Source of the DNA: Candidatus Methylomirabilota bacterium
GTDB lineage: Bacteria > Methylomirabilota > Methylomirabilia > Rokubacteriales > CSP1-6
Direction of reading: 5' to 3'
DNA length: 64,000 bases
NCBI GenBank assembly: GCA_036556905.1
Contig: DATBIM010000050.1
Span: 8,207 to 72,206, forward strand
Shown here: one piece after another, positions 8,575 to 40,344 of the stretch
Position numbering within the stretch: the first letter of the stretch is position 1
Layout of the letters: each line of letters opens with the position of its first letter
The notes under the pieces: generated by a model
What the model was told of the DNA's origin: nothing
What the model saw: the letters and a program-made list of their open reading frames with translations, nothing else
The model's database searches: none
Made by a program: the position numbers and the translations under genes

Positions 8575-8607
8575 ACCGAAATGGCGTCAGCCCGGGTGCT
8601 GGTCGAC

Positions 8608-10128
8608 TCAGCAATTGCCCATACGAGCGATCACTGCGTCGAGCTGGCAACGCCGGAAGCCGTAGGCGGTGATTCCGAGCACCCCCGGCTTGAGGAGTGC
8701 AGCGTCATAGGGGTCGCGTAGCAGCACCACGGCGAGGGCGCGGGCCCGGGCCTGCAGGACATCGAGCAACGTTCGGTTCGAGGCGTACAGGCGAGCGTCG
8801 TACAGGAAGAGGATGGTGGCGTCCGCGGTGGCGGCCGCTTCCACCGCGGCCTCGATCTCCGAGGGCGACGGTTCAATTCCGACCAGCGTGGCGTCGGGCA
8901 CGATGCCGACGGTGGCAAAGGCCTGCGCCAGATATCCCTTTTCGTCGGTCAGCTCTGGCTCGATGGTAATGCGGGCGGCCAGATCGGACAGGCGCGGAAA
9001 TACCACGGCGACGCGTCCGTTCAGTCGTCGCGCGAAGCCAGTTGGAGCAGGTGCTACGAGAGTCACCGCACGCGTGGCCATCGCCATCGCGAGTGCTGGG
9101 CCGTCCGGTTCGGGGCGTGGCGAGCCGCCCTGGAAGCGTCGGGACCGGGCCTGGCGGAGCTGGCGGACCCGCTCGGCAGCGGTCACGAGCTCGTCCCGGG
9201 GCAGCGCTCCCGATCGATAGGCATCGGTCAAGGCCCGGGCCGCGGCACGCTGAGCGCCCTCGGTGTGACAGACGAGCAGCACGTCGTGGCCGGCCGCGGC
9301 CGCGCGCACGGTTGCCTCGGCGATGGGGCAAGTCTCGGCGATGGCCCCCATCTCCAGGTCGTCCGAGACCACCACGCCCGGGAAACCGACCTCTCCGCGC
9401 AGGTAGTCGGTCACGATCCTCCTGGAGAAGGTCGCCGGAACGCCGGACGAATCGAGGTTGGGGTACACGGGATGAGAGGTCATGACGCAGGCGACGTCGG
9501 CGGCGATCGCCTCCAGAAAAGGTACGAGGTGAACCGCACGCATCTCGTCCCAAGTGGAGTCGATGCGGGGCAGCCGCAGGTGAGCGTCGAGGGGTGAGTG
9601 TCCCTTCCCCGGAAAGTGCTTGGCGCAGGCGGCGAGCCCACCCTTGGCCATGCCTCGGATGCGCGCCGTCCCGTAGCGCGCCACACGCGTTGCGTCCTTG
9701 CCGTACGAGCGGATGCCGATGTTCGGGCTGTAGCGCTCTGTCAGCACGTCGAGCACGGGGCCCAGGTTGAGGTCGATGCCGAGCCGTCGCAGTTCGCGGC
9801 CTTCGCACAGGCCCTGCCGGTAGGCGAACGCCTCCTCCCCGGCAGTACCGACGGCGAGGTTGTCGGGGAAGATCGTCACACCCCGGCCGAGCATGATGAC
9901 CCGACCGCCTTCGTGATCGGTCGCCACGAGCAGTCGGCGCTCGAGGGCGCCCTCCAAATCGCTGATCAGGCGAATGAGCTGAGTCGGGCTTTCGAAGTTC
10001 CGGCGGTAGAGGATGAGACCGGCCGCGTGGGTGTCGCGAAAGAGGGCGACGTCGCCCTGGCCCAGCGTCGGGCCGGGCAGCCCGATCATGAGCCGCTCGC
10101 CTACGAGGTCGGCGAAGTCGACCACCAC
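8608..10128 (-). CDS. nagZ: beta-N-acetylhexosaminidase (glycoside hydrolase family 3, NagZ-like) with C-terminal extension
   Basis: GH3 N-domain motifs (KHFPGKGHSPLDAHL, VVVSDDLEMGAI). 506 aa, so longer than the roughly 340 aa of E. coli NagZ; the extra length is a C-terminal domain. Confidence 0.85.
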   Translation of the reverse strand: MVVDFADLVGERLMIGLPGPTLGQGDVALFRDTHAAGLILYRRNFESPTQLIRLISDLEGALERRLLVATDHEGGRVIMLGRGVTIFPDNLAVGTAGEEAFAYRQGLCEGRELRRLGIDLNLGPVLDVLTERYSPNIGIRSYGKDATRVARYGTARIRGMAKGGLAACAKHFPGKGHSPLDAHLRLPRIDSTWDEMRAVHLVPFLEAIAADVACVMTSHPVYPNLDSSGVPATFSRRIVTDYLRGEVGFPGVVVSDDLEMGAIAETCPIAEATVRAAAAGHDVLLVCHTEGAQRAAARALTDAYRSGALPRDELVTAAERVRQLRQARSRRFQGGSPRPEPDGPALAMAMATRAVTLVAPAPTGFARRLNGRVAVVFPRLSDLAARITIEPELTDEKGYLAQAFATVGIVPDATLVGIEPSPSEIEAAVEAAATADATILFLYDARLYASNRTLLDVLQARARALAVVLLRDPYDAALLKPGVLGITAYGFRRCQLDAVIARMGNC

Positions 10129-18146: not shown

Positions 18147-18647
18147 GTGGACGTTACCGAAGCTAAGGACCGAATCGCGATGGCCCTGGTGGAATCGATC
18201 TTCCGCCGGGCCCGCTATCGGGTGACCGCGCTCCTTCCCGAGCGCGCACGATTTCGCTTCGTGCGCGACGACATCGTTCCGCGCCTGAGCATCAACGTGC
18301 CCGACGCCACGGGCGTGGAACGGGACGTGCCCATGGGCATCGCCTACAAGCCGTTCATCGAAGCGTTCATCGCACTGGAGAACCAGCGACGCGATTCCTC
18401 GCTGTTCGCGATTGCCCGGCGGCGGTGTCCGACGCTGCTGCTCATCCTGATCACCGATCATCCGGCGCCCGGGCGCTCGTGCTTTCAGGCCATGGCCCCG
18501 GCGGGCCTCGAGGGGCTACGCACCGTCGACCTGCTCACCCTCACTCAGCTGCGCCTGTTCCCCCACAACATCGCCGACCACGAGACGTTGCTGCGGCGGA
18601 TCTTCGCGCTGCTCTCCGACGAGCAGGTCGTCACTCGAGTCGGGTAG
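18147..18647 (+). CDS. hypothetical protein
   Basis: 166-aa ORF (GTG start) with protein-like composition. No family recognised. The overlapping antisense ORF looks like an artefact. Confidence 0.35.
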   Translation: MDVTEAKDRIAMALVESIFRRARYRVTALLPERARFRFVRDDIVPRLSINVPDATGVERDVPMGIAYKPFIEAFIALENQRRDSSLFAIARRRCPTLLLILITDHPAPGRSCFQAMAPAGLEGLRTVDLLTLTQLRLFPHNIADHETLLRRIFALLSDEQVVTRVG

Positions 18648-18674: not shown

Positions 18675-19367
18675 TCAGGTGATGGCCTGGGCGATGAGAA
18701 AGGCCACGCCGGCAGCGAGGCCGCCGATGAGCGCCGTCTGCAGCGCGCTGCGCCCGGGCGGGGCGCCGGTGAAGCGTCCCTTCACGTAACCAAAGACGAG
18801 CAGGGCGACGAGCGTGACCGCCGACGAGACAATCAGCGCCGTGGTCGCGCGCGGAATCAGCATGTACGGCCAGAGCGGGATGAGGCCTCCCAGGACGTAG
18901 GCCCCACCGATGGTGATGGCGCTGCGCAACGCGCGCCGAGGATCCGGGCGCTCCAGGCCGAGCTCGAAGCGCATCATGAAGTCGACCCAGCCCTCAAGGT
19001 TGCGCTGCAAGGCCTCCACCAGCGGGGCCGCGGCCTCCGCCTTCACCCCGTAGCCCTCCAGCACTTCGAACACCTCGGTGGCCTCGGCCTGGGGCTTCTC
19101 CCGGACCTCGCGCTGTTCGCGCCGGCGCTCGCTGGCGTAGTGCTCGGCGTCGCTCCGGGCTGCCAGGTAGCCTCCCAAGCCCATGGCGATGGCGCCGGCC
19201 CCGATCTCGGCGAGCCCGGCCACCACGATGATCCAGGTCGCGTCGATGGCGCCGGTGAGCCCGGCGGCCAGGGCGAAGGGCACGGTCAACCCATCGGCCA
19301 TGCCGAGCACGAGGTCGCGCACGGCCCGGTTCCCGGTGAAATGCCGCTCGGGATGGACCAGTGTCAT
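18675..19367 (-). CDS. VIT1/CCC1-family iron/manganese transporter
   Basis: N-terminal LVLGMADGLTVPFALAAGL, central acidic loop, then two or three TM helices; typical VIT architecture. Confidence 0.7.
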   Translation of the reverse strand: MTLVHPERHFTGNRAVRDLVLGMADGLTVPFALAAGLTGAIDATWIIVVAGLAEIGAGAIAMGLGGYLAARSDAEHYASERRREQREVREKPQAEATEVFEVLEGYGVKAEAAAPLVEALQRNLEGWVDFMMRFELGLERPDPRRALRSAITIGGAYVLGGLIPLWPYMLIPRATTALIVSSAVTLVALLVFGYVKGRFTGAPPGRSALQTALIGGLAAGVAFLIAQAIT

Positions 19368-19894
19368 GCGTCGACCGGACTGACGCCGATCTTGTGGCGC
19401 TGGGCCAACGCCTGGTAGCCGCTGGGGTTGGCCCGCACCCAGAATTCGGCCGGCGTTCCAGCCAGCGGTCCCTTGACCCGCGCCGGCGCGCCCACGGCCA
19501 GGACACCGGCGGGGATAGCGGTGCCCGGCGTCACCAGCGCCCCGGCCGCCACCATGGCTCGCGCGCCGATACGCGCGCCGTCCAGGACCGTAGCTCCGTT
19601 GCCGACCAGGGCCTCTTCCTCCAGCACGGCGCCGTGGACGACGCAGGTGTGGCCGATCGTCGCGCCGGCCCCGATCTCCACCGGATGCATGGGCGTCACG
19701 TGCACGACCGCACAGTCCTGGACGTTGGCGCCGCGCCGGATCACCACCGGTCCGAAGTCGGCGCGGACGACGGCGTTATACCACACCGACGCATTTTCCT
19801 CGACGGTCACGTCGCCGATCAACACGGCCGTCGGCGCGATGAAGGCGGAGGCGTGCACCGTGGGGCGTTTTCCCTCGAAGCTGAACAGTGGCAT
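19364..19894 (-). CDS. gamma-class carbonic anhydrase family protein (left-handed beta-helix, YrdA/PaaY-like)
   Basis: 176 aa. Hexapeptide repeats and the HVTPMHPVEIGAGATIGHTCVVHG His-ligand region. 4-nt overlap with the VIT gene. Confidence 0.8.
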   Translation of the reverse strand: MPLFSFEGKRPTVHASAFIAPTAVLIGDVTVEENASVWYNAVVRADFGPVVIRRGANVQDCAVVHVTPMHPVEIGAGATIGHTCVVHGAVLEEEALVGNGATVLDGARIGARAMVAAGALVTPGTAIPAGVLAVGAPARVKGPLAGTPAEFWVRANPSGYQALAQRHKIGVSPVDA

Positions 19895-19950
19895 AGGGCG
19901 GGCCCTCGCAGTATCCTCGGGTTCGTCGACCCAATCTTACGCGAACCCTC

Positions 19951-20994
19951 ATGTCGATAGAGACGCCGATTCGGTACCCTCGGATAGCCGCGGTGGCCAC
20001 CGCCTCGCCACCCCATCGCTTCAGCCAGGCCGACCTGCTGGCGCTGGCTGGCTACGGCGACTCCCAGCGTCGAGGCTTCTTCGAGCGCAGCGACATCGAG
20101 AGCCGCTTCCTCTGCATCGACCCCACACGTTTCCATCCTCCCGAGAGCGTGGACGAGATGCAGGCCCGGTTCAGCGAGGGAGCGCTGACGCTGGGGGAGG
20201 CAGCGGCGCGGCAGGGCCTGGCCCGGGCTGGCTGGATCGCCCCGGACCTCGACTTCCTCGTCACCACCACGTGTACCGGGCGTCTGACCCCGAGCCTGGA
20301 CGCCCACCTGATCGCCCGCCTGGGCTGCCGACCCGATATCCAGCGGGCGCACATCGGCGACACCGGCTGCGCGTCAGCCATGGTGGCGCTGCAGCAGGCG
20401 TGGAATCACCTGCGGGCCTTCCCCACTCACCGGGCGCTGGTGATCGCCGTAGAGATCTGCTCGGCGGCGTACTACCTGGACCATCGCCTGGAATCCGCGG
20501 TGGCCCACGCGATCTTCGCGGATGGGGCCGGCGCCGTGGCCCTGTCCCTCGAGGGATCGGGGCCGGCCATCGTGGCCCATCGGACACTGTTCCGCTCCGA
20601 GCACCTCGACGCCATGGGCTTCGAGTACCCGGGCGGGCGCCCTCGCGTGGTCCTCTCCAAGGACGTGCGGCGGATCGGACCCGCCATGCTGAAGGAGATG
20701 GCCCAGGTGCTGATGGACGCACAGGGGCTCAAGCGAGAGGACATTCGTCACTGGGTGCTGCATTCGGCGGGCCGCCGGGTGCTCGAGCGGGCGGCCGGCC
20801 TGCTCGGTCTGGGCGATGCGGAGATGGCGCACGCCCGCGCGGTGCTGCGCACGCACGGAAACATGTCCTCGGCAACGATCCTCTTCGTGCTCCAGCGGAC
20901 GTTGCAGGCCGGATCCCCGATGCCGGGCGAGTGGGGCCTCATGATCGGGCTCGGCCCCGGCTTCGCGGCCGAGGGCGCCCTGCTCTGCTGGTGA
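19951..20994 (+). CDS. type III polyketide synthase (chalcone/stilbene synthase superfamily)
   Basis: 347 aa. Active-site Cys context IGDTGCASAMVAL, C-terminal GLGPGFAAEGALL (the GFGPG signature) and a CHS-like N-terminus. Confidence 0.8.
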   Translation: MSIETPIRYPRIAAVATASPPHRFSQADLLALAGYGDSQRRGFFERSDIESRFLCIDPTRFHPPESVDEMQARFSEGALTLGEAAARQGLARAGWIAPDLDFLVTTTCTGRLTPSLDAHLIARLGCRPDIQRAHIGDTGCASAMVALQQAWNHLRAFPTHRALVIAVEICSAAYYLDHRLESAVAHAIFADGAGAVALSLEGSGPAIVAHRTLFRSEHLDAMGFEYPGGRPRVVLSKDVRRIGPAMLKEMAQVLMDAQGLKREDIRHWVLHSAGRRVLERAAGLLGLGDAEMAHARAVLRTHGNMSSATILFVLQRTLQAGSPMPGEWGLMIGLGPGFAAEGALLCW

Positions 20995-20995
20995 G

Positions 20996-21673
20996 GTGAT
21001 GCTGCCCCGCGCGGAAGGCGCGCGCGAATACCTGGACGGACCCGTCCCCGGGGTCGACCGCGAGGCCTCGCTGGCCGATATCCATCGCCTCAACGCCTGG
21101 TTCGGCGGCTACCGGCTCAGCGAACGAGCGATCGAGCGGCTGATGCGGGCGGCGCTGCGGGACGCCGCCTTGTGCATCGTGGACGTCGGGGGCGCTCGGG
21201 GCGACCTGGCTGCACGGCTGATGGCCCGGGCGCGCCGGCGGGGTCGCCGCCTGGTCGTGATCGTGGTCGACCGCGACGGCGCCGTGCGGCCCCGGCCGGG
21301 TGTGGTCGTGGTGCGGGCCGACGCCACCGCGCTGCCCTTTCGACCCGGCGCGGCCGACGTCGTGACGGCTTCGCTGCTGCTCCATCACCTCGAGCCCCCC
21401 GCCGCAGTCCGGAGCCTGGTCGAGATGCGGGCGACCGCCCGCCGGGGCGTCGTCATCAATGATCTGCTCCGGAGCCGGCTCACGCTCGCTCTCGTGTGGC
21501 TCGTCACCCGGCTGTTCACGCGCCATCGGTTCGCGCGTCACGACGGGCCCCTCTCGGTGCGCCGCGCCTACTCGCCCGCCGAGCTGTCCGCGCTTGCCGC
21601 GCGGGCTGGTCTGGCGCGCTTCGATGTGCGGCGCCACCCGTGGCTGGGGCGGATCGTAGCCGTGGCCGAATGA
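20996..21673 (+). CDS. class I SAM-dependent methyltransferase
   Basis: 225 aa. Motif I-like IVDVGGARGDLAARL, motif II/III around VVVVRADATALPF, then SLLLHHLEPP. Starts 2 nt after the PKS stop. Confidence 0.7.
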   Translation: MMLPRAEGAREYLDGPVPGVDREASLADIHRLNAWFGGYRLSERAIERLMRAALRDAALCIVDVGGARGDLAARLMARARRRGRRLVVIVVDRDGAVRPRPGVVVVRADATALPFRPGAADVVTASLLLHHLEPPAAVRSLVEMRATARRGVVINDLLRSRLTLALVWLVTRLFTRHRFARHDGPLSVRRAYSPAELSALAARAGLARFDVRRHPWLGRIVAVAE

Positions 21674-22869
21674 CGGCGCGCGCCGATGTCGTCGTCGTGG
21701 GAGCCGGGCCGGCCGGCGCCGCCACCGCCATCCTGCTCGCCGAGCGTGGCCTGGAGGTCGTGGTGCTCGATCGGGCTCGTTTCCCTCGGCCCAAGCTCTG
21801 CGGCGAGTATCTAAGTCCGGAGGCCACGCGGCTCCTCGACCGTCTCGGCGTGCTCAAGGCGGTGGATGCTGCCGGCGCCGCCCCTCTCCGGGGAATGCGC
21901 ATCACCGCCCCCGACGGCACGGTCGTGGGGGGCAGGTACCGTCCGGTCGGTTCCTGGCGGCCCTATCGTGATCACGCCCTCGGGGTCAGTCGCGCCACCC
22001 TCGACGCGGTGCTGGTGGATCGTCTGCGAAGCTTGCCCGTGGATTTCCGCGAACAGACGCGCGTCACCGAGCTGCGGTGGGAGGGCCAGCAGATCGTGGG
22101 CGTCAACACCGTCGATGCGTCGGGCCGGGCCCAGCCCGTTCGGGCCCGGCTGGTGATCGGCGCCGATGGTCGAAGCTCGGTGGTGGCTCACCAGCTCGGC
22201 TGTCGCCGACCCCACCGCCTCCGTCGCATGGCGCTGGTGACCTATGTGCGGTCCATCGCCGGCTGCCGGGACGTCGGCGAGATCTTCGTCGACCCGCCGG
22301 ACTACGCGATCCTCAACCCCCTGGCCCCCGATCGCGTGAACATGAGCCTGGTGGTGCCACTCGACCACGTGGCGCCCTGGAGCGACCGGCTAGAGGTGTT
22401 CTTCGACGCCCGGGTCAAACAGCTCCGCCACCTGGCCCGGCGCATCGCCGGCGCCGAGCGGATCACGCCCGTGCAGGCGATGGGGCCGCTGGCCTACACG
22501 GTGAGGCCGCCGGTGCAGGGCGGCGTGCTGCTGGTGGGTGATGCCGCGGGGTTTTACGACCCGCTCACCGGGGAGGGCGTGTTCAGCGCGTTGCGGGGGG
22601 CCGAACTGATCGCGGAGACGGCCACCCGCGCCTTCCACGCCGGCGACTGGTCGTGGGTCACGCTCGCCAGCTACGAGCGCGCCCGTCGCGCGGTGTTCGC
22701 CGGCAAGGAGCGCTTCACCCGTGCACTCCAGTTCGTGGTGCGACGGCGCCGGCTGGCCGATCTGACCGCCCACCTCCTGGCGCGGCATCCCGCCCGCGTC
22801 GACCTTCTCCTCGGCGTGGCCGGCGACTACGTGCCGCCGCGCGCGCTCCTGGGCGCCGATCGAGCATGA
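21670..22869 (+). CDS. FAD-dependent oxidoreductase (COG0644, geranylgeranyl-reductase/FixC-like family)
   Basis: VVVVGAGPAGAATA Rossmann motif and GDAAGFYDPLTGEGV signature. ATGA overlap with the methyltransferase stop. Confidence 0.8.
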   Translation: MTARADVVVVGAGPAGAATAILLAERGLEVVVLDRARFPRPKLCGEYLSPEATRLLDRLGVLKAVDAAGAAPLRGMRITAPDGTVVGGRYRPVGSWRPYRDHALGVSRATLDAVLVDRLRSLPVDFREQTRVTELRWEGQQIVGVNTVDASGRAQPVRARLVIGADGRSSVVAHQLGCRRPHRLRRMALVTYVRSIAGCRDVGEIFVDPPDYAILNPLAPDRVNMSLVVPLDHVAPWSDRLEVFFDARVKQLRHLARRIAGAERITPVQAMGPLAYTVRPPVQGGVLLVGDAAGFYDPLTGEGVFSALRGAELIAETATRAFHAGDWSWVTLASYERARRAVFAGKERFTRALQFVVRRRRLADLTAHLLARHPARVDLLLGVAGDYVPPRALLGADRA

Positions 22870-23531
22870 CGACCCGCGCCGACCCCCTGCCTCGTCGGTT
22901 CGCCAGGCTCTCCACGGCCGCCGTCACCGACGTGATGGATGAGATGGGTCTGCAACGCCAGACGTTGCCCTCGGCGATCCAGCCGCTGACTCCCGACATG
23001 CGCGTGGCCGGCTACGCCTTCACAGTCCGGGGCCGGGCCCGGCGCGGGAGTCCGCGCGAGCGCGACGCCACGCTGCGACGCTTCCTCGAAATGTTGACCG
23101 CGGTGCCCGCCGACTCGGTGCTGGTGCTGGCCAGCAATGACAGTTCCGCGGCCCACTTCGGCGAGCTGTCGGCGGCGTGGCTCCGCAGCCGGCGAGTGCG
23201 TGGTGTCGTCATCGACGGGGCCACCCGGGACAGCGCGATGATCAGTCGGCTGGGTTTTCCCACCTTCGTCCGCTATCGAACGCCTCAGGACTCGGTGCCG
23301 CGCTGGCGCGTCAGCGACTGGGGGTTGCCCGTCGTCATCGGAGGCGTCCGGGTGACGCTCGGCGACGTCATCGTGGCGGACCTCGACGGCGTCGTCATCG
23401 TCCCCCGACGCGCCGCCCACGAGGTGCTGGTCCGCTGCGAGCGCCTGGTGAACACGGAGCATCGGGTGCGGGCGGCGCTCCGACGGGGGATGTCCCCGCT
23501 CGACGCCTACAAGAAGTTCGGCAGCTTCTGA
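22866..23531 (+). CDS. RraA-family protein (ribonuclease E inhibitor / 4-hydroxy-4-methyl-2-oxoglutarate aldolase-like)
   Basis: 221 aa. Conserved AVTDVMDEMG, VVIDGATRD and DVIVADLDGVVIVP blocks. ATGA overlap with the upstream gene. Confidence 0.75.
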   Translation: MTTRADPLPRRFARLSTAAVTDVMDEMGLQRQTLPSAIQPLTPDMRVAGYAFTVRGRARRGSPRERDATLRRFLEMLTAVPADSVLVLASNDSSAAHFGELSAAWLRSRRVRGVVIDGATRDSAMISRLGFPTFVRYRTPQDSVPRWRVSDWGLPVVIGGVRVTLGDVIVADLDGVVIVPRRAAHEVLVRCERLVNTEHRVRAALRRGMSPLDAYKKFGSF

Positions 23532-23543
23532 GGTGAAGGGTCG

Positions 23544-24887
23544 CTACCGGGGTTTGGCAGGGACACGGCCGCCGGCGCTGGCCAGCGGTCCCTCGATCCG
23601 GTCGCGGACCCACTTGCCGTCCCACCACTCGAGCGGCGTCACCGAGACCCCCTGGATCAGGACCTCGTAGTGCAGGTGATCACCGGTGGCCAGGCCCGTG
23701 GTGCCGGTGCGACCGATCTCCTGTCCTCGGCTCACATGGTCGCCGACCTTCACGCGGATCCCCGAGAGGTGGCCGTAGAGCGTCATGAGCCCCAGGCCGT
23801 GGTCGATGATGATCGTGTTGCCATAGATGGTGAGCGGACCGGCGAAGACAACCGCGCCGTTGTTGGCGGCGGGCACCGGGGCCTGTTTGGTGGAGGCCAG
23901 GTCATAGCCGAAGTGAATCTGGGTGTCGATGTCGCGCCCCTGATAACGGTAGGTGCGGGTCTCGGCAAAGTTCGAGAAGACCTTGGTGTTCTTCGGTTGC
24001 ACGAAGGCGCCGTCCCAGAGGGGCCGGTCGGCGGTCTTCGCGGCCAGCCGTCGCTTCTCCTCCTCGGCCTGGCGACGCTGGTCGCGATTGATCGTCAGGA
24101 AGCCCTCCACCAGGGCCCGCCCGGGCGGGTGCTGGGGCAGAAGCTCCGCGACCTTCACCTGCAGCAAGGCATCCGTCACCTCGATCGTGTCGCGGCGGAA
24201 ACGCCGCGGCAGCACCTCGATTCCGACGCCGCGGGTCGCCGTGTTGCCGGCCTCATCCTGAGCGTTGACGGTCAGGGCGCTGCCCCGCGTGAAGTCATGG
24301 GGCAAGGCAAAGAGTCCGACCCGGAGGCCGCCACTCCCGAAGGCGAAGGTGGGAAAGCTCAGTGTCGCCACCCGGGTCTCGGCCCGGGTGGCATCACCAG
24401 CCCGTAGCACCACCAGCCCCGCGCCGCCCGGCGCCACATAGGGCGTGGCCGCCACGACCTCGAGCCGGGGCGGCGTGAAGTCGACGGCGATGGGGAAACT
24501 GGCGGCCGCGCGCTGGGCGCGGCCGAACGGCCGCCAGAAATCATCGGCGGCCCACACCTCCAGGGTGCCGGCACCCTCCCGGATACCACCGTCCGGTGTG
24601 AGCGTGGCCACGACCTCGACCCGTGACGTCGGGCGGCCCTCGTAGCGACCGACGACGGTGACGGCCTCGCCCTGCACAACCCGAACCTCGGCGCGGGAGA
24701 CGTTACCGCGCGCCGCCTCCACGACCAGGGTCACCGGCATGCGCGACCCGATCGCCCGCTTCGGCGCGCCGGTCACCTGGACGCCGGGAACGGACTGCCG
24801 CCAGGTGAGGTATGCGACGCTGCCGCCGATGACGATCAGAAGGAATACGACGATCAATGAGAGCTTCAAGCGAGACCGCCGAGGCAC
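23544..24887 (-). CDS. M23-family metallopeptidase (LytM/lysostaphin-like) with N-terminal TM anchor
   Basis: C-terminal M23 domain (HFGYDLAS, GLMTLYGHLS, GDHLHYEV). GTG at 24887 is preferred over the ATG at 24956, which would overlap the nuoL promoter. Confidence 0.75.
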   Translation of the reverse strand: MPRRSRLKLSLIVVFLLIVIGGSVAYLTWRQSVPGVQVTGAPKRAIGSRMPVTLVVEAARGNVSRAEVRVVQGEAVTVVGRYEGRPTSRVEVVATLTPDGGIREGAGTLEVWAADDFWRPFGRAQRAAASFPIAVDFTPPRLEVVAATPYVAPGGAGLVVLRAGDATRAETRVATLSFPTFAFGSGGLRVGLFALPHDFTRGSALTVNAQDEAGNTATRGVGIEVLPRRFRRDTIEVTDALLQVKVAELLPQHPPGRALVEGFLTINRDQRRQAEEEKRRLAAKTADRPLWDGAFVQPKNTKVFSNFAETRTYRYQGRDIDTQIHFGYDLASTKQAPVPAANNGAVVFAGPLTIYGNTIIIDHGLGLMTLYGHLSGIRVKVGDHVSRGQEIGRTGTTGLATGDHLHYEVLIQGVSVTPLEWWDGKWVRDRIEGPLASAGGRVPAKPR

Positions 24888-24949
24888 GAACGCATCATAG
24901 CACGCTGCTACGCTGGCGCCGTTGCAGTAGCATCGCACCGGCTCGTTGC

Positions 24950-24979
24950 TTGACACTGCTGCCGACCGTTGGCTAGAGT
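24950..24979 (+). promoter_or_regulatory. putative sigma70-type promoter of nuoLMN (TTGACA-N18-TAGAGT)
   Basis: TTGACA at 24950-24955 and TAGAGT at 24974-24979. The nuoL GTG follows at 24986, only 7 nt after the -10 element, so the mRNA would be leaderless or very short-leadered. Confidence 0.4.
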
Positions 24980-24985
24980 GACGCG

Positions 24986-26857
24986 GTGTCCACGGTCGTC
25001 TGGTTGGTCCCCGCCTTTCCGTTGCTCGGCGCGCTTTTCAACATCCTCGGAGGACGCTACATCGGTCGCCGTGCCCACTGGATCGCGGTGCCCGCGCTCG
25101 CCGCCTCCTGCGTGGCCGCGGGTGTCGTGTTCGCCGGCGTGCGCCAGGGCCAGGTCGTGACGACCGCGCTCTTTCCGTGGGTGATCGCGGGGGAGTTCGA
25201 GAGCTCGGTGAGCGCTCACGTCGACCCGCTGAGCGCGGTCATGCTGCTCGTCGTCACTGGCGTGGGCCTCCTCATCCACGTCTACTCGGTGGGCTACATG
25301 CACGCCGATGCCAGCTACGCCCGCTACTTCGGGTATCTGAACCTCTTCGTGTTCTCCATGACGATGCTCGTGCTAGCCGGTAACTTTCTCCTCCTCTACG
25401 TCTTCTGGGAGGCCGTCGGTCTCTGCTCGTATCTGTTGATCGGCTTCTGGTACACCCGCCCGGCGGCAGCCCAGGCGGGCAAGAAGGCGTTCGTCGTCAA
25501 CCGCGTGGGTGATTTCGGCTTCGGCCTGGCCGTGATGTGGCTGTGGCGGGAACTGGGCACGCTCGATTACGGCGAGGTGTTCGCCCGCGCCGGCGAGCTC
25601 ACGCCGCCCACGGCGACGGCCATCGCGCTGTTGCTGTTCATGGGCGCCTGCGGCAAATCGGCGCAACTCCCGCTCCACACCTGGCTCCCCGACGCGATGG
25701 AGGGCCCCACGCCGGTCTCGGCGCTGATCCACGCCGCGACCATGGTCACCGCCGGCGTGTACATGGTGGCCCGTAGCCACGCCGTGTTCGAGCGCTCGGA
25801 GGTGGCCCTGGAGGTGGTCGCCTGGGTGGGAGTGATCACGGCACTGTTCGCCGCGACCATCGCGATGGCCCAGACCGATATCAAGCGGGTGCTCGCCTAC
25901 TCCACGGTGAGCCAGCTCGGCTACATGTTCGCGGCGGTGGGGCTGGGGGCCTACGCGGCGGGGATCTTTCACCTGGTGACGCACGCGTTCTTCAAGGCCC
26001 TGCTCTTTCTCGGCGCCGGCAGCGTGATTCACAGCCTCAACGGCGAACAGGACCTGCGCCGGATGGGCGGCCTGGCGCCCAAGATGGTGGCCACGACCCT
26101 CACCATGACGGTGGGCGCGGCCGCGCTGGCCGGAGTTCCCCCCCTGGCCGGATTCTTCTCCAAGGACGAGATCCTGCACTCCGCCTTCACGCGCGCCCCG
26201 GTGATCTGGGTCCTGCTGCTGCTGGGCGCCTTTCTCACTGCCTTCTACACCTTCCGGTTGATCTTCCTGGCCTTCTTCGGCTCGCCGCGAATGTCGCGGG
26301 AGGTCGCCCACCACGTCCACGACTCGCCCGGCGTGATGACGCTGCCGCTCGGTGTGCTGGCCCTGCTCACGATCGTGGCCGGCTGGGCGATCGGCCTGCC
26401 CTCGGCGCACGGGACCCGCTTCGAGCGGTTCCTCAGCCCCGTGTTCCCGGCTCACGACGCCACCAGCAGCGGGGTGCTGACGCTCATGCTGGGTGTGCTC
26501 AGCGTGGTGGCGGCCGCCTCCGGTATCACCCTGGCCTGGTTCCGCTATCTGGCCACGCCGGTGCGGGCCGAGAGCATCGGACGGCCACGGTCCCTGGTCC
26601 ACGCGCTGCTGCTCAACGCCTACTATGTCGACCAGCTCTACGACCGCGCCATCGTGCGGCCCGGGCTGGCGCTGTCGGAGTTTTTGGCCCGGGCGATCGA
26701 TCTCAGCGTCATCGACGGCATCGTGAACGGGGTAGGACGGGCCGTCGTGAGCGGGGCGGCCGCGGCGCGGCGCTGGCAAACGGGGTACGTGGTGAACTAC
26801 GCGCTGACCATGCTGGTGGGCGCGGTGGTCCTGGTCGCCTTTTTCTTGACGCGATGA
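24986..26857 (+). CDS. nuoL: NADH-quinone oxidoreductase subunit L
   Basis: 623 aa, about 16 TM segments, NuoL/ND5 antiporter-like blocks and the lateral-helix region. Confidence 0.9.
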   Translation: MSTVVWLVPAFPLLGALFNILGGRYIGRRAHWIAVPALAASCVAAGVVFAGVRQGQVVTTALFPWVIAGEFESSVSAHVDPLSAVMLLVVTGVGLLIHVYSVGYMHADASYARYFGYLNLFVFSMTMLVLAGNFLLLYVFWEAVGLCSYLLIGFWYTRPAAAQAGKKAFVVNRVGDFGFGLAVMWLWRELGTLDYGEVFARAGELTPPTATAIALLLFMGACGKSAQLPLHTWLPDAMEGPTPVSALIHAATMVTAGVYMVARSHAVFERSEVALEVVAWVGVITALFAATIAMAQTDIKRVLAYSTVSQLGYMFAAVGLGAYAAGIFHLVTHAFFKALLFLGAGSVIHSLNGEQDLRRMGGLAPKMVATTLTMTVGAAALAGVPPLAGFFSKDEILHSAFTRAPVIWVLLLLGAFLTAFYTFRLIFLAFFGSPRMSREVAHHVHDSPGVMTLPLGVLALLTIVAGWAIGLPSAHGTRFERFLSPVFPAHDATSSGVLTLMLGVLSVVAAASGITLAWFRYLATPVRAESIGRPRSLVHALLLNAYYVDQLYDRAIVRPGLALSEFLARAIDLSVIDGIVNGVGRAVVSGAAAARRWQTGYVVNYALTMLVGAVVLVAFFLTR

Positions 26858-28371
26858 CCCTCGGGTGGCTGACGGCGGTGACCTTCCTGCCGGCCGTGGG
26901 GGCGCTCCTCCTGGCCTTCGTCCCCCGCCAGTACGAGGGCCTGCTGCGCGGCGGCGCCCTGGTCGTGGCCCTGGCTACCTTCGCGCTCTCGGTTCCGCTC
27001 TACGTCCTCTTCGACGGCACCTCCGCCGCCTACCAGTTCGTCGAGTACCTGCCCTGGATCCCCGCGCTGGGGGTCGGCTATCATCTGGGCCTCGACGGCA
27101 TCAGCCTGCTCCTCGTGCTCCTGACGACGTTCATCACGCCGCTGGCCCTCGGCTCGGCCTGGCACGCCATCGACGATCGGGTCAAGGAGTTCGTGGTGAC
27201 GATGCTCCTGCTGGAGACGGGGATGGTGGGCGTATTCGTGAGCCTGGACCTCTTCCTCTTCTACGTGTTCTGGGAAGCCATGCTCATTCCCATGTACGTC
27301 ATCATCGGCGTGTGGGGCGGGAGCGCGCGCATCTACGCGGCCGTGAAGTTCGTGCTGTACACGATGGTTGGCTCACTGCTGATGCTGGTGGCCATCCTCG
27401 TTCTCTATTTCCAGCACGGCGCGGCCACCGGCACGTACACCTTCGACGTGCCGGCGCTGGCCCGGTGGGTAGTGCCGCCGGGGCCGGCGCAGAACCTCAT
27501 GTTCGCCGCCTTTGCGCTGGCCTTCGCGATCAAGGTGCCGCTCTTCCCGTTCCACACCTGGCTCCCTGACGCCCACGTGGAAGCCCCCACGGCGGGGTCC
27601 GTCATCCTGGCCGCGGTGCTGCTCAAGATGGGGACCTACGGCTTCTTGCGCTTCTGCCTGCCGCTGTTCCCGGACGCCAGCCTGACCTTCGGACCGCTGA
27701 TGTTCGCCCTGGCGGTCATCGGCATCGTCTACGGTGCCTGGGTGTCCACGGTGCAACCCGACCTCAAGAAGCTCGTGGCCTACTCGAGCGTGAGCCACCT
27801 GGGCTTCGTGGTGCTCGGCATCTTCACGCTCAACGTGCAGGGCCTGACTGGCGGGCTGATCCAGATGGTCAACCACGGACTGTCTACCGGGGCGTTATTT
27901 CTGCTGGTGGGTATGCTCTACGAGCGGCGTCACACGCGCCGCATCGCCGACTTCGGCGGGCTCTGGAAGGTCGCGCCGGCCCTGTCCGCGGTCTTCCTGA
28001 TCGTGGCCCTGTCCTCGATGGGGCTGCCCGGCCTCAACGGCTTCGTGGGCGAATTCCTCGTCCTCGTCGGCGCCTTCCAGGTCAACCGCCTGCTCGGCGC
28101 GGTCGCCACCACGGCCATCATCTTCACCGCCGTCTACCTGCTGTGGATGTACCAGCGGGTCTTCTTCGGCGACCTCCGGCACGAGGACAACCGCCGGCTC
28201 CCCGATCTCACCCCGCGGGAGTGGGCACTCCTGGCGCCGGTGGTGGTGCTCATCGTCTGGATCGGCGTCTATCCGCTGGCCTTCACGGGACCCACCGAGG
28301 CCTCGCTTGAGGCGCTGATCACCCAGGTCGAGTCCAAAGCCGGCGTCGCCCGCGCGGCCGGGGTCCGATGA
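26854..28371 (+). CDS. nuoM: NADH-quinone oxidoreductase subunit M
   Basis: 505 aa. ND4 family. 4-nt overlap with nuoL. Confidence 0.9.
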   Translation: MTLGWLTAVTFLPAVGALLLAFVPRQYEGLLRGGALVVALATFALSVPLYVLFDGTSAAYQFVEYLPWIPALGVGYHLGLDGISLLLVLLTTFITPLALGSAWHAIDDRVKEFVVTMLLLETGMVGVFVSLDLFLFYVFWEAMLIPMYVIIGVWGGSARIYAAVKFVLYTMVGSLLMLVAILVLYFQHGAATGTYTFDVPALARWVVPPGPAQNLMFAAFALAFAIKVPLFPFHTWLPDAHVEAPTAGSVILAAVLLKMGTYGFLRFCLPLFPDASLTFGPLMFALAVIGIVYGAWVSTVQPDLKKLVAYSSVSHLGFVVLGIFTLNVQGLTGGLIQMVNHGLSTGALFLLVGMLYERRHTRRIADFGGLWKVAPALSAVFLIVALSSMGLPGLNGFVGEFLVLVGAFQVNRLLGAVATTAIIFTAVYLLWMYQRVFFGDLRHEDNRRLPDLTPREWALLAPVVVLIVWIGVYPLAFTGPTEASLEALITQVESKAGVARAAGVR

Positions 28372-29810
28372 GCCCGATCGCCGCGCCCCCGGTGGCGCTG
28401 GGCACACTGCTGCCGACGCTCATCGTGCTGGGCACGGCGCTGCTGGTGCTGCTCCTGGATCTCCTGCCCCCGCGGGGGCGGAAGGCGCATCTGGGTCTGC
28501 TGACCCTGGTGGGCCTGATCGGCGCACAGCTGGCGACGCTGGCGGTGTGGGGCGCCCCCGGGCGGGGCTTCAAGGACATGATCGTCCTCGACAACTATGC
28601 GCTGTTCTTTCACCTCGTGGTCATCTACGCGGCGGCCCTGGCCGTGCTGATGTCGATGGACTACCTGCGCCGGGCCGGCGCCGAGTCGGCCGAGTGTTAT
28701 GCGCTGCTGCTCTTCGCCGCGTCGGGAATGCTGCTGCTGGCCTCGGCCAACGACCTCATCGTCGCGTTCCTGGCCATCGAGCTCATGTCGCTCTCGCTCT
28801 ACGTGCTGTCCGGCCTCTTCAAGCGGCGGCCCGACGCCGGGGAGGCCTCCATGAAGTACTTCCTGCTGGGCGTCTTCGCCTCGACGTTCCTCCTCTACGG
28901 CATTGCCCTCCTGTACGGCGCCGCCGGCTCCACGAACTTCGATCGCGTGGCCGCCGCGCCCCGCAGCCCCCTCGTCCTGATCGGCCTGGGCCTGCTCCTG
29001 GTCGGCTTCGGCTTCAAGATCTCGTCGGTGCCGTTCCACATGTGGGCGCCCGACGTCTACCAGGGGGCGCCGACCAGCGTCACCGCCTTCATCGCCACCG
29101 GTTCCAAGGCTGCGGTGTTCGCGGTGCTCATCCGCCTGGTGGTGGCCGGGCTGCGCACGGTGCAGGCCGACGCCACCCCGGTGCTCTGGGCCCTGGCCGC
29201 CCTCACCATGACGGTGGGCAACGTCGTGGCCATCGCCCAGTCCAGCTTCAAGCGCATGCTGGCGTACTCCTCGGTGGCCCACGTGGGCTACATGCTCGTG
29301 GGGGTGGTGGCCGCCGGCCCGGCCGGCGCCAGCGCCGTCCTCTTCTATCTGTTGGCGTACACGTTCACCACCGCGGGCACGTTCGGGGTGATCGCGCTCT
29401 GCGAACGGGCCGGCGAGGAGGCGGTGGACGTCCGGGACTACGCGGGGCTCGGGCGGCGGCACCCGGCGCTGGCGCTGGTGCTCAGCCTGTTCTTGCTCTC
29501 GCTCGTCGGCATTCCGCCGCTCGCCGGGTTCGTGGGGAAGGTCTATCTGTTCGGGGCTGCCGTGCGCGCCGGGTTCGTGTGGCTCGCGGTGATCGCCGTG
29601 CTGAACTCGGCACTCGCCGCCTACTACTACCTGCGCGTGATCGTCTACATGTACATGCGGGACCCCGAGGGCGCTTCCGCCTCGCCCGTGCCCTCGTTCG
29701 CCGGCGCGCTGGCCCTGGCCATCGCGCTGGTCGGCATCGTGCTCCTCGGCGTCGCGCCGGCCCCGTTCGCCGACCTTGCGACGGCGGCGGTGGCCCCCTT
29801 GCTGCGCTAG
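28368..29810 (+). CDS. nuoN: NADH-quinone oxidoreductase subunit N
   Basis: 480 aa. ND2 family. 4-nt overlap with nuoM. Confidence 0.9.
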   Translation: MSPIAAPPVALGTLLPTLIVLGTALLVLLLDLLPPRGRKAHLGLLTLVGLIGAQLATLAVWGAPGRGFKDMIVLDNYALFFHLVVIYAAALAVLMSMDYLRRAGAESAECYALLLFAASGMLLLASANDLIVAFLAIELMSLSLYVLSGLFKRRPDAGEASMKYFLLGVFASTFLLYGIALLYGAAGSTNFDRVAAAPRSPLVLIGLGLLLVGFGFKISSVPFHMWAPDVYQGAPTSVTAFIATGSKAAVFAVLIRLVVAGLRTVQADATPVLWALAALTMTVGNVVAIAQSSFKRMLAYSSVAHVGYMLVGVVAAGPAGASAVLFYLLAYTFTTAGTFGVIALCERAGEEAVDVRDYAGLGRRHPALALVLSLFLLSLVGIPPLAGFVGKVYLFGAAVRAGFVWLAVIAVLNSALAAYYYLRVIVYMYMRDPEGASASPVPSFAGALALAIALVGIVLLGVAPAPFADLATAAVAPLLR

Positions 29811-38799: not shown

Positions 38800-39160
38800 G
38801 CTGAGAGCGCGCGTCACGCTGGTCAGCGCGGCGACGGCTGCCGTGCTGGCGGGATTGGCCTACGGGCTGGCCGGCCCCGCCGCTGGGCTCGGGGTCGCGG
38901 CCGCGGGGGCCCTGACTTTGGCGAACTTCTGGTGGCTCGTGCACAACGCCGGTGCCGTCGCCGACGTCGTCCCCGCCTCGCGCCGGCTCGTCTGGGCCGT
39001 CGCCTCCGGGGTGCGACTCCTGGCGCTGGTGGCGGTGCTGGCCCTGCTACTCGCCTCCGGGCTCGTGCACCCCGTGGCGTTCGTCGTCGGGCTGGTGATC
39101 GTGCCCGGCGCGGTGATCGTGCTGGGACTGCGGGCCGCCTGTCGCGCCGGAGCCGGATGA
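38792..39160 (+). CDS. atpI: ATP synthase protein I
   Basis: About 122 aa hydrophobic protein with four predicted TM segments (NFWWLVHNAG... region). Overlaps the atpZ stop. Position immediately upstream of atpB. Confidence 0.5.
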   Translation: MRELRARVTLVSAATAAVLAGLAYGLAGPAAGLGVAAAGALTLANFWWLVHNAGAVADVVPASRRLVWAVASGVRLLALVAVLALLLASGLVHPVAFVVGLVIVPGAVIVLGLRAACRAGAG

Positions 39161-40291: not shown

Positions 40292-40344
40292 ACAGGCTCG
40301 CGGTGGCGGGCGCGGACGCCGTGCCCGCCACCCACGCACTGCTC

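Follow-up and report, generated by a model that had tools for sequence, protein, structure and literature searches.

A phylum-wide Rokubacteria operon with a probable role in making a tailored aromatic polyketide

In Rokubacteria (Methylomirabilota), an uncultured soil phylum, almost every relative of the organism considered here carries the same chromosomal operon as a block conserved at the level of the phylum. Its first three genes encode a type III polyketide synthase (PKS), a methyltransferase (MT), and a flavoprotein. Taken as a whole, the evidence is best explained, in our judgment and with somewhat better than even confidence, by a vertically inherited Rokubacteria operon for a tailored aromatic polyketide in which PKS, MT, and flavoprotein act in that order.

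The operon was found in a 64,000-nt stretch of DNA (the window), where the ORF listing and junction sequences reveal four co-directional genes on the plus strand. These encode the type III PKS (19951-20994, 347 aa), a class I SAM methyltransferase (20996-21673, 224-225 aa, starting at GTG 20996 or ATG 20999), an FAD-dependent oxidoreductase (21670-22869, 399 aa), and an RraA-fold protein (22866-23531, 221 aa). An earlier note, made from the sequence alone, had described such a four-gene block, and its gene order and families are borne out by the ORFs and by Pfam and NCBIfam matches. The two ATGA overlaps it reported are also seen, one joining the MT stop to the flavoprotein start and the other joining the flavoprotein stop to the RraA-like start. 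However, the 2-nt spacing it gave between the PKS and MT genes is actually 1 nt if the MT begins at GTG, or 4 nt if it begins at ATG. The flavoprotein gene begins at the ATG within the overlap and not with the longer ORF from 21496.

On the left flank lie the VIT1 (18675-19367) and gamma-carbonic anhydrase (gCA; 19364-19894) genes named in the same note, both on the minus strand. On the right is an M23 peptidase gene (23544-24956, minus strand), with nuoL, nuoM, and nuoN beyond it. The operon promoter presumably resides in the 56-bp divergent region, read from the sequence, between gCA (-) and PKS (+) (19895-19950), where a consensus scan found no sigma-70-like site. Within the window, the block comprises the only specialized-metabolism genes amid housekeeping genes.

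Of 59 related species, 58 carry the PKS and MT genes, and they do so in the same frame, with gCA on one side and the M23 peptidase and nuoLMN genes on the other. The conserved arrangement reads ILVD/SDR/ACAD/ECH/hyp/VIT1/gCA, then PKS-MT-FAD and in some cases RraA, then M23/nuoLMN, and the gCA(-)|PKS(+) adjacency holds in 54 of 55 related species loci. Chance is excluded because order, orientation, and start/stop overlap are conserved across 58 species representatives. A lack of synteny in related genomes had been named as grounds for abandoning the original proposal; instead, the PKS-MT-flavoprotein order recurs in many genomes. Median identity across the related species is 73% for the PKS (58 species), 74% for NuoL, and 76% for gCA, and for the other operon members it is 52% (MT), 67% (flavoprotein), and 77% (RraA-like protein). 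That the PKS occurs across the phylum and is about as well conserved as NuoL points to a physiological function, such as a membrane lipid or redox carrier, more than to a sporadic antibiotic.

The PKS contains the Pfam domains Chal_sti_synt_N/C and FAE1_CUT1_RppA, holds AHIGDTGCASAMV and GLGPGFAAEG, and carries the clade motifs GDTGCAS and LHSAGR. In the PDB it comes closest to Pks11 (E 2.8e-40), and each of the best 60 matches listed there is a type III PKS. Because the catalytic triad (Cys140, His271, and Asn304) is intact, and indeed invariant in two family alignments, the enzyme should be active. The NCBIfam FabH model scores 94 bits, and in a FabH-rooted tree the protein falls inside the type III PKSs, not with FabH/KAS III. 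Thus triad, structure matches, and tree agree on the chalcone-synthase-superfamily assignment made earlier. Its clade groups as the sister of DpgA (93% bootstrap) in what is a small neighbor-joining tree of limited sampling, with SrsA, ArsB/C, and HidC absent, and it lies apart from the trio and alkylresorcinol PKSs. The PKS is no ortholog of the planctomycetal PKSs, which share 31-33% identity with it and occupy separate clades in this tree, and probably none of HidC. In the alignment, Phe224 occupies the Trp/Tyr specificity column where alkylresorcinol synthases carry a diagnostic Trp, the residue tied to resorcinol formation. With a DpgA-sister clade and Phe in place of this Trp, any assignment of product and starter is tentative.

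DpgA, the 3,5-dihydroxyphenylacetyl-CoA synthase of glycopeptide and NRP clusters, is the nearest characterized PKS by HMM, BLAST, and tree. A malonyl-CoA-primed enzyme of this kind would make a small 3,5-dihydroxyphenylacetyl-type aromatic, which after methylation and hydroxylation would serve as a soluble metabolite or cofactor precursor and not as a phenolic lipid. The NCBIfam DpgA score of 217.8 bits, compared with 164-166 bits for the other trio PKSs, is consistent with this route, as is a tblastn match of 203 bits at ~36% identity. Both proteins also have a compact N-terminus and carry H-S-x-G instead of HPGG, and the residue at the RppA Tyr224 column is aromatic but is not Trp. Mutagenesis of RppA reportedly indicates that an aromatic residue at this position supports malonyl-CoA priming.

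Despite these likenesses, we consider a DpgA-like pathway unlikely. The score is only half of the DpgA cut-off of 425, and the identity is modest. The operon has no DpgB/C/D-like partners, and no dpgB/C/D genes or aminotransferase gene were found near it. The ECH gene located 2 kb upstream is part of a distinct SDR-ACAD-ECH unit, and no such gene accompanies the trio in Methylomirabilales and Bryobacteraceae. Moreover, the MT and flavoprotein partners are those of alkylresorcinol-type PKSs. The comparison does affect how the product of our preferred aromatic polyketide operon is described: because DpgA uses only malonyl-CoA and yields a CoA ester of a small aromatic acid, it is uncertain whether the product here is a lipid, and the term "phenolic lipid" is not secure.

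Trios that combine a PKS with homologs of this MT and flavoprotein occur in Planctomycetota, Alphaproteobacteria, Bacillota, and Deinococcota. Homologs of all three proteins are adjacent in Paludisphaera, in the order MT-FAD-PKS, and in Roseomonas, Paenibacillus, and Deinococcus, in the order PKS-MT-FAD. The MT has Methyltransf_23/11/25 domains (Pfam), and its sole strong NCBIfam family is NF004851 PRK06202 (128 bits), and the MTs encoded at the loci in Paludisphaera, Roseomonas, Deinococcus, and Chloroflexota likewise match this one family alone. Identity to the trio MTs of Paludisphaera (L090), Roseomonas, and Paenibacillus is 35-38%, and residues D63, H130, H131, D156, R159, D183, and S187 are invariant in the family alignment. 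No ICMT/PEMT domain was detected in the protein, and a sequence search returned no PDB relative. Judged by these family matches, it is a soluble class I (Rossmann), PRK06202-like SAM-dependent methyltransferase.

The flavoprotein matches PF01494 FAD_binding_3 (1.7e-32), and its best NCBIfam models are TIGR02032 GG-red-SF (142.9 bits, cut-off 158.8) and QhpG (120.5 bits). The same two models are best for the FAD proteins of Paludisphaera and Roseomonas, and identity to the Paludisphaera (L090), Roseomonas, and Paenibacillus homologs is 27-35%. The best PDB matches by sequence are ChlB4, FasV (8zop), and CmlS, and the AF2 model (pLDDT 91.6) gives Mpy16, ChlB4, and PltA as top Foldseek matches. 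Together these matches bear out the earlier description of a GGR/COG0644-like protein that is not UbiH-like.

Among characterized enzymes, the phenolic/pyrrolic halogenases PltA, Mpy16, ChlB4, CmlS, and Bmp2 are the best sequence and structure matches (TM about 0.8). The flavoprotein retains the GxGxxG and GDAAxFxDP motifs common to flavin-dependent halogenases, but has DYAILNPL in place of WxWxIP and Pro-Leu in place of the catalytic Lys that PltA and ChlB4 carry in their FPKK segment. A halogenase function was rejected, since both WxWxIP and the catalytic Lys are missing. A GGR-superfamily sequence with a phenolic-halogenase-like fold that lacks these two features is probably an aromatic hydroxylase, as predicted from the model, although the retained GGR/FixC-like K-x-C-G-E motif means that it could alternatively be a reductase.

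The fourth protein matches PF03737 (4e-32) but falls below every curated cut-off: PRK08245 scores 118.6 bits, PRK09262 101.7 bits (cut-off 179), TIGR02798 88.7 bits (cut-off 304.5), and the model for RraA proper merely 33.6 bits (cut-off 136). Its R121/D122 aligns to the catalytic R123/D124 of 3noj, the Arg-Asp pair of aldolases and decarboxylases. On this sequence evidence it belongs to the HMG/CHA-aldolase/oxaloacetate-decarboxylase-like subfamily of RraA-fold class II aldolases, with which it shares the fold, the Arg and metal-binding Asp, and a length of ~220 aa. It is probably an active divalent-metal lyase or beta-decarboxylase. Unlike those aldolases, it is not found in a genomic context of aromatic catabolism. 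The gene had been noted as an appendage to the operon, and it is indeed present here, but it is no constant member: it follows the flavoprotein gene in 30 related species and is absent in 18. It is thus a clade-specific accessory, gained in one Rokubacteria sub-clade, and its putative tie to the pathway is only positional.

These distributions could also mean that two units have been joined, with PKS and MT (with or without the flavoprotein) forming a polyketide module and with FAD-RraA forming a separate pair whose ATGA coupling is incidental here. Such a pair might consist, for example, of a hydroxylase and a class II aldolase/decarboxylase whose substrate is a different aromatic compound or keto acid; aromatic catabolism is the home of HMG/CHA aldolases. 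Four relatives (L007, L119, L125, and L149) retain FAD-RraA without PKS or MT in the same frame after gCA, and the flavoprotein may therefore be PKS-independent. Close RraA homologs also sit directly 3' of the flavoprotein gene in nearly all metagenome loci with enough upstream sequence, the exception being L131, where ~2 kb of upstream sequence contains no FAD gene, and median RraA identity far exceeds that of the MT. We nevertheless find this division doubtful. Across phyla, Chloroflexota included, it is MT and FAD that stay linked, whereas the flavoprotein occurs without RraA in the 18 Rokubacteria species and in all non-Rokubacteria loci. An opposite-strand ORF separates FAD from RraA in L020 and L071, and a pair of genes is not by itself a recognized catabolic route.

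Under the preferred reading of a single operon for a tailored aromatic polyketide, the type III PKS would add malonyl-CoA units to a CoA- or ACP-bound starter to form what may be a resorcinol-type ring. The PRK06202-like MT would then methylate the ring, by analogy with its homologs HidA (O-methylation) and Gimesia maris Mtr (probably C-methylation). The flavoprotein would hydroxylate the phenol to a hydroquinone that could be oxidized to a quinone. This last step draws on the role proposed for HidB and on the class A (UbiH/PHBH-type) monooxygenase that fills the FAD slot of the Deinococcus trio.

The earlier note had likened the locus to srsABC and ars-type phenolic-lipid loci. A strict srsABC/pkqABC-type operon would pair a long-chain alkylresorcinol synthase with an O-methyltransferase and a hydroxylase to make alkyl-methoxy-benzoquinones (polyketide quinones) that carry electrons in the membrane, a role that would account for the conserved site next to nuoLMN. 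The PKS-MT-flavoprotein order does match both operons, and polyketide quinones are alternate electron carriers in mycobacteria and are present in Streptomyces spores (PMC9927152, PMC5916927). Furthermore, nuoL lies <1.5 kb from the locus in most Rokubacteria, and the PKS shows the degree of conservation expected of a housekeeping protein. Beyond gene order, however, the likeness fails. SrsB is an isoprenylcysteine-carboxyl-methyltransferase (ICMT)-type membrane enzyme (PMC6669644) unrelated to the class I MT, and the PKS groups with DpgA and does not have the Trp that SrsA, PKS10, PKS11, FtpA, and ArsB all share. An opposite-strand M23 peptidase gene always separates the operon from nuoL, with further genes inserted in some relatives. 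Because Methylomirabilales and Bryobacteraceae carry the trio in unrelated gene contexts, the nuo adjacency looks like inherited synteny. We therefore regard a strict operon of this type as quite improbable.

That the block was acquired horizontally as a secondary-metabolite island, as its first label implied, is scarcely credible: its isolation among housekeeping genes and the plasmid-borne similar cassettes of other phyla are outweighed by a GC content (0.70-0.73) that matches the whole window, a skew no different from the surroundings, the lack of mobility genes at the block, a neighborhood syntenic in dozens of related species, and a position and orientation kept in 54-58 species representatives with NuoL-like divergence.

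Among known systems, srsABC of Streptomyces griseus and pkqABC (the pks10 operon of Mycobacterium smegmatis), whose products are methylated alkylresorcinols and alkylquinones, are analogs of this locus in order and logic, and the locus is not a member of their family. SrsC, moreover, is described as a usual-type monooxygenase/hydroxylase, in contrast to the GGR/halogenase-like flavoprotein here. The homologous cassette type is hidABC/planctomycetal MT-FAD-T3PKS, represented by the hierridin cluster of picocyanobacteria and the mtr-fdo-t3pks operon of planctomycetes. It is a contiguous set of type III PKS, soluble SAM MT, and FAD-dependent oxidoreductase genes for which a PKS>MT>FAD order, hidC>hidA>hidB, has also been described (PMC8086630). 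This link runs via the planctomycete homolog in Paludisphaera, with HidA, HidB, and HidC compared by description. Recombinant HidA methylates 5-pentadecylresorcinol, and hydroxylation is assigned to HidB (PMC6836626). PKSs of planctomycetal cassettes produce alkylresorcinols, to which co-expressed Mtr and Fdo add one methyl group; no hydroxylation was detectable on this co-expression, and the role of Fdo was left open by its authors (PMC10896814). The hydroxylase role of the FAD enzyme is thus putative even in the planctomycete reference system. Compared with these cassettes, the Rokubacteria PKS is a DpgA sister with Phe for Trp, HSAG for HPGG, and no N-terminal insertion, an RraA-like gene has been added in a sub-clade, and the locus is fixed in a phylum-wide housekeeping neighborhood. 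The MT-flavoprotein pair would then be a portable tailoring module, homologous to the hidABC/planctomycetal pair and coupled here to a PKS of the DpgA-sister clade, which makes the operon, as far as homology indicates, a new version of a known cyanobacterial and planctomycete cassette.

The type III polyketide synthase (PKS) gene that opens the operon (19951-20994, + strand; Pfam Chal_sti_synt_N/C, FAE1_CUT1_RppA) ends with TGA at 20992-20994 and is followed on the same strand by a methyltransferase (MT) gene that starts with GTG at 20996 or with ATG at 20999 (Pfam Methyltransf_23/11/25; NCBIfam PRK06202, 128 bits). Two ATGA sequences, at 21670-21673 and 22866-22869, supply the start codons of the other two + strand genes, which code respectively for a flavoprotein (FAD_binding_3, 1.7e-32; TIGR02032 GG-red-SF, 142.9 bits; QhpG, 120.5 bits) and an RraA-like protein (RraA-like Pfam, 4e-32). 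To the left lie genes for a gamma-carbonic anhydrase (gCA) and a VIT-family protein (VIT1), both on the - strand, and to the right an M23 peptidase gene (- strand) followed by nuoL, nuoM and nuoN. This agrees with an earlier note that described four co-directional genes, their families and their flanks, except that the PKS and MT genes are separated by 1 or 4 nt rather than by 2. Scanning the operon for promoters and terminators gave nothing above chance.

The remainder of the window reads as housekeeping genes, and the operon is indeed its only non-housekeeping block, as had been claimed. Upstream are genes for permeases, MlaC, a GH3 enzyme, NamZ and IlvD, and downstream are glpD, a GDPD-family phosphodiesterase gene, glpK, an ABC transporter gene, atpB, and genes for Rex and Mfd. 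The nuoL, nuoM and nuoN genes (24986-29810) lack the remaining nuo genes upstream and are preceded by the opposite-strand M23 peptidase gene. The sole sigma-70-like site of the scanned region (10 of 12 matches) is located at 24950-24979, directly upstream of nuoL. A gene for a Rex-type redox-sensing repressor (Put_DNA-bind_N + CoA_binding) lies immediately past that for the ATP synthase a-subunit and ahead of mfd (window 40303-40995 and 38932-39942). The repressor is ordinary, but it adds a respiratory flavour to the surroundings of the operon.

The operon is vertically inherited and phylum-wide, and it serves a predicted tailored aromatic polyketide. The names of homologues assign the contig to Methylomirabilota / Candidatus Rokuibacteriota, and identical PKS and flavoprotein sequences occur on one public metagenome-derived contig of 72.6 kb. 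Contigs with PKS or RraA homologues share a common frame, in which ILVD, SDR, ACAD, ECH, hypothetical, sometimes DJ-1, VIT1 and gCA genes precede PKS, MT, flavoprotein and sometimes RraA-like genes, with M23 and nuoLMN beyond. Scanning one genome per species with a 15-sequence MT alignment and mapping the loci by tblastn yielded 59 Rokubacteria-type species loci. PKS and MT genes are present in 58 of them, the remaining contig being truncated, and gCA is directly upstream in 54 of 55. Median identity to the window is 73% for the PKS, 74% for NuoL, 76% for gCA, 67% for the flavoprotein, 52% for the MT and 58% for the M23 peptidase. The pace of PKS evolution thus matches that of a complex I subunit.

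The earlier note had called the locus an island. Horizontal acquisition of a genomic island would be expected to leave atypical composition, mobility genes or patchy presence in close relatives, and we found none of these: GC content and skew of the operon are the same as in the rest of the window. Composition and synteny in related species therefore refute the island claim. A role for the upstream SDR, ACAD and ECH genes as starter suppliers was also considered. These genes are absent beside the adjacent PKS, MT and flavoprotein genes (hereafter the trio) in Methylomirabilales and Bryobacteraceae, so we left them out of the operon. Literature searches returned no paper on the operon in Rokubacteria/Methylomirabilota, and none on the quinones of these bacteria.

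Several further observations concern the neighborhood in relatives. The ECH gene and VIT1 are separated by a 166-aa ORF without a Pfam match (18147-18647, +), and ORFs of 168-182 aa, likewise without a Pfam match, are found at the equivalent position in eight related contigs (L001-L006, L008-L009). The stretch from the RraA-like gene to nuoL is an insertion hotspot in relatives (L008/L009:9193-14497, L004:12052-15549 and L007:7816-11586). Examples there include a CHAT/TPR protein with a CHASE2-guanylate cyclase, a GT9 glycosyltransferase with an 810-aa protein, and an 880-aa spermine-synthase-like/TPR protein. Four contigs labelled Acidoferrum, Binatia, Nitrosotalea (an archaeon) and Verrucomicrobiia (L021, L036, L044, L052) carry Rokubacteria-type genes with PKS identities of 65-75%. 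The gCA gene is followed by PKS, MT and flavoprotein genes in L036, L044 and L052, and only PKS and MT genes are present in L021. These contigs are probably mis-binned in their metagenome-assembled genomes.

The PKS is certainly a type III PKS, as the earlier note held, and not a FabH/KAS III enzyme. C140, H271 and N304 form a catalytic triad that never varies when the enzyme is aligned with the trio PKSs, Pks11, DpgA and RppA, and both Chal_sti_synt_N/C and FAE1_CUT1_RppA score above their Pfam cut-offs. Among NCBIfam models, DpgA gives 217.8 bits and FabH 94 bits, and the best 60 PDB matches listed are all type III PKSs. In a neighbor-joining tree (338 columns, 200 bootstraps, HidC not included) rooted on E. 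coli FabH, the window PKS nests inside the type III PKSs.

Within that family, the window PKS belongs to a clade (100% bootstrap) whose sister group (93%) comprises Streptomyces DpgA and DpgA-like enzymes, and the PKSs of the other trios form a separate clade (98%). DpgA is also its best BLAST match (36% identity, 203 bits) and its top HMM at 218 bits, with other trio PKSs scoring 164-166 bits, all below the cut-off of 425. The PKSs of Rokubacteria, Methylomirabilales and Bryobacteraceae have in common a short N-terminus and the motifs GDTGCAS and LHSAGR, the latter replacing HPGG. Despite its kinship with DpgA, the window enzyme falls short of the DpgA equivalog cut-off (217.8 against 425 bits). 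Its operon also differs from DpgA loci such as the Streptomyces dpgABC locus (L099) in having no dpgB, dpgC or dpgD; instead, MT, flavoprotein and RraA-like genes come after the PKS gene. In one species without the RraA-like gene (L033), an enoyl-CoA hydratase family gene is located downstream of the flavoprotein gene on the same strand (8582-9421, +). DpgB and DpgD are crotonase-fold enzymes, which makes this gene noteworthy beside a DpgA-like PKS, although its placement may be a coincidence.

Residue W281 of ArsB determines resorcinol formation, and the Trp is conserved in FtpA, SrsA, PKS10 and PKS11 (PMC5916927). The column of ArsB-W281 and Pks11-W230 holds Phe (F224) in the window PKS and throughout its clade, Trp in Pks11 (Trp230) and in the Paludisphaera, Roseomonas and Deinococcus PKSs, and Tyr in an RppA-type enzyme. 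Candidate products are long-chain alkylresorcinols, pyrones and small malonyl-primed aromatics.

The MT matches only class I Methyltransf_23/11/25 in Pfam and PRK06202 in NCBIfam. The latter model (NF004851) is its sole strong NCBIfam family at 128 bits, and is the single family matched by the corresponding MTs of Paludisphaera (232 bits), Deinococcus (307 bits, which exceeds the cut-off), Roseomonas (136 bits) and Chloroflexota (140 bits). In a cluster look-up, distant homologues carry only generic UbiE/UbiG-type names. Searching plasmids by tblastn with the window MT recovered trios in Paludisphaera borealis (MT-FAD-PKS), Roseomonas (PKS-MT-FAD) and Paenibacillus, where tblastn identities to the window proteins are 31-33% for the PKS, 35-38% for the MT and 27-35% for the flavoprotein. 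A PKS search added the PKS-MT-FAD arrangement of Deinococcus proteolyticus, in which a PKS, a PRK06202 methyltransferase and a flavoprotein are encoded on plasmid pDEIPR01 (L095:3983-6952).

Chloroflexota carry the MT-FAD pair (MT 41-47%, FAD 31-37% identity) with no type III PKS within 7 kb. In 13 of 16 such loci, the pair is followed by genes for an SRPBCC polyketide cyclase (Polyketide_cyc2) and a FabF-like ketosynthase. The occurrence of the pair beside a cyclase and ketosynthase rather than a type III PKS points to a portable aromatic-polyketide tailoring module. The Chloroflexota set (L068-L089; e.g., L084:7001-10709 and L081:7001-9586) looks like an undescribed small aromatic-polyketide cluster.

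By analogy with HidB, for which hydroxylation has been proposed (PMC6836626), the flavoprotein is most likely a hydroxylase of the phenolic product. The GG-red-SF and QhpG models rank first for the flavoproteins of the window, Paludisphaera and Roseomonas. The Deinococcus trio instead has a UbiH/PHBH-type monooxygenase (PRK08244, 158 bits) that is not GGR-like. This is a non-orthologous replacement, which argues that the job of the flavoprotein slot is aromatic hydroxylation. When a planctomycete MT and FAD enzyme were co-expressed, one methylation was observed and hydroxylation went undetected, and the authors left the role of the FAD enzyme open (PMC10896814). The window flavoprotein may alternatively be a reductase.

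A halogenase was suggested by PDB and Foldseek matches. The closest solved relatives by sequence are ChlB4 (2e-28), then FasV (8zop), CmlS, Mpy16, Bmp2 and PltA, with FixC, geranylgeranyl reductase (GGR) and UbiH-type hydroxylases ranking below. An AlphaFold model built from an input alignment of 34 homologues (pLDDT 91.6, pTM 0.91) retrieves the same halogenases first with Foldseek (TM about 0.8), followed by flavin monooxygenases and GGR (0.68-0.77). However, the WxWxIP position reads DYAILNPL, invariant in 34 Rokubacteria homologues, and the ChlB4 segment FPKKYGAAW aligns with AAPLRGMRI in the window protein. The equivalent FPKK segment of PltA contains the Lys that we take to be catalytic. 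The halogenase assignment is rejected because both the WxWxIP motif and this Lys are missing. The unexplained chlorination step of hierridin C had made the idea attractive (PMC6836626).

Membership in the GGR family proper fares little better, with a TIGR02032 score of 142.9 bits, slightly below the cut-off of 158.8. GGRs carry the motif YxWxFP, and a K-x-C-G-E segment is typical of GGR and FixC. The window flavoprotein keeps the latter, but reads Y-A-I-L-N-P where YxWxFP is expected. The automatic JGI name 'menaquinone-9 beta-reductase' (MenJ) can be dismissed at 71 bits against a cut-off of 700.

In 30 of the 59 species loci, the flavoprotein gene is followed by an RraA-like gene, which is absent from 18 others, with 11 not judgeable. 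PKS identity to the window is 68-92% in species with the gene and 65-72% in those without it, which indicates that the gene marks a sub-clade. None was found in the trio loci examined outside Rokubacteria. The gap between the two genes is usually 12-140 nt, but reaches 292-1308 nt in six species, and an opposite-strand ORF intervenes in two loci (L020, L071). Using the RraA protein as anchor, a metagenome scan brought up 34 loci in which gCA could be seen; 31 have gCA followed by all four genes, and three have only the flavoprotein and RraA-like genes, without PKS or MT. Only these two genes stand between gCA and M23 or nuoL in L007:5804-7669 (an 806-kb contig), L119, L125 and L149. Either the PKS and MT genes were lost or moved in these four, or the flavoprotein and RraA-like protein are able to work alone.

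The protein is not RraA proper, given its 33.6 bits against the NF006875 cut-off of 136 and its length of 221 aa rather than about 160 aa. Its residues R121/D122 align with R123/D124 of PDB 3noj, and E100 with D102. In the 3noj study, Arg123 is reportedly catalytic and Asp124 metal-binding. The protein scores below the cut-offs of both PRK09262 (101.7 bits; cut-off 179) and TIGR02798 (88.7 bits; cut-off 304.5). Judged by sequence, it is a member of the HMG/CHA-aldolase-like subfamily, and is probably active as a metal-dependent lyase or decarboxylase. Its tie to the polyketide is positional only.

What is new here is the combination of a DpgA-sister PKS clade carrying Phe at the specificity position, a clade-specific RraA-fold enzyme, a fixed place by nuoLMN and conservation at the level of housekeeping genes. 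Because the operon occurs in essentially every sampled species and its PKS is as slow to change as a complex I subunit, it is a candidate core trait rather than a mere antiSMASH 'T3PKS' hit. A far-reaching proposal, which we consider improbable, is that Rokubacteria/Methylomirabilota universally make a novel aromatic polyketide with an uncharacterised DpgA-sister PKS, tailored by a portable module of MT and halogenase-fold hydroxylase and, in a sub-clade, by an RraA-fold decarboxylase or aldolase. The product would then be a core physiological molecule, such as a membrane or respiratory polyketide quinone or hydroquinone, and not a dispensable secondary metabolite.

To our knowledge, no member of the DpgA-sister clade has ever been characterised and no role in polyketide biosynthesis has been described for RraA-fold enzymes. 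Likewise, we know of no cultured representative of Rokubacteria, which are abundant in soil and whose physiology is understood from genomes alone. The worth of the operon is that it offers well-defined enzymes for testing. These are a PKS clade between DpgA and alkylresorcinol synthases in which Phe naturally replaces Trp at a position known to govern specificity, a tailoring pair found with three different kinds of polyketide-forming enzymes, and an RraA-fold enzyme in a possible first role beside a polyketide pathway. Should the product be a quinone, the use of polyketide quinones as electron carriers would reach beyond Actinobacteria; should it be an ordinary methylated alkylresorcinol, the operon would be a routine addition to a known cassette.

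Two operon families that combine a type III PKS, a methyltransferase and a flavoprotein are described in the literature, namely srsABC/pkqABC and the hidABC/planctomycetal cassettes. The earlier note had matched the locus to srsABC. The likeness in gene order stands, since type III PKS, methyltransferase and flavoprotein follow one another in a single operon in both, an order that 58 of the 59 related species retain. The methyltransferase family does not match: the SrsB homologue of srsABC/pkqABC is an isoprenylcysteine carboxyl methyltransferase (ICMT)-type protein (PMC6669644; PMC9927152; PMC5916927), set apart by its family description from the class I enzyme of the window operon, which has no ICMT-family member. 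The alkylresorcinol-synthase Trp is also replaced, by F224. No srs-type cluster was found on Streptomyces plasmids, where the loci examined hold dpg-like, rppA-like or solitary PKS genes.

Cyanobacterial hidABC and the three-gene operon seen at 58 planctomycete PKS loci join the PKS to a SAM methyltransferase and an FAD-dependent oxidoreductase, and hid-type cassettes have been described in the order A>B>C as well as C>A>B (PMC10896814, PMC8086630, PMC6836626). In the window too, a PRK06202-like class I MT adjoins the PKS, a likeness tested via Paludisphaera and other trios, and a GGR-superfamily FAD oxidoreductase adjoins the MT. The PKSs, however, are not orthologous, as the trio enzymes form their own clade (98%) and the window clade is sister to DpgA (93%) in the tree, which was built without HidC. 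The observation in the earlier note is thus confirmed and its interpretation is partly right. On sequence grounds, the operon is analogous to srsABC/pkqABC, with a non-homologous MT, and shares a homologous tailoring pair with the hid/planctomycetal alkylresorcinol cassette.
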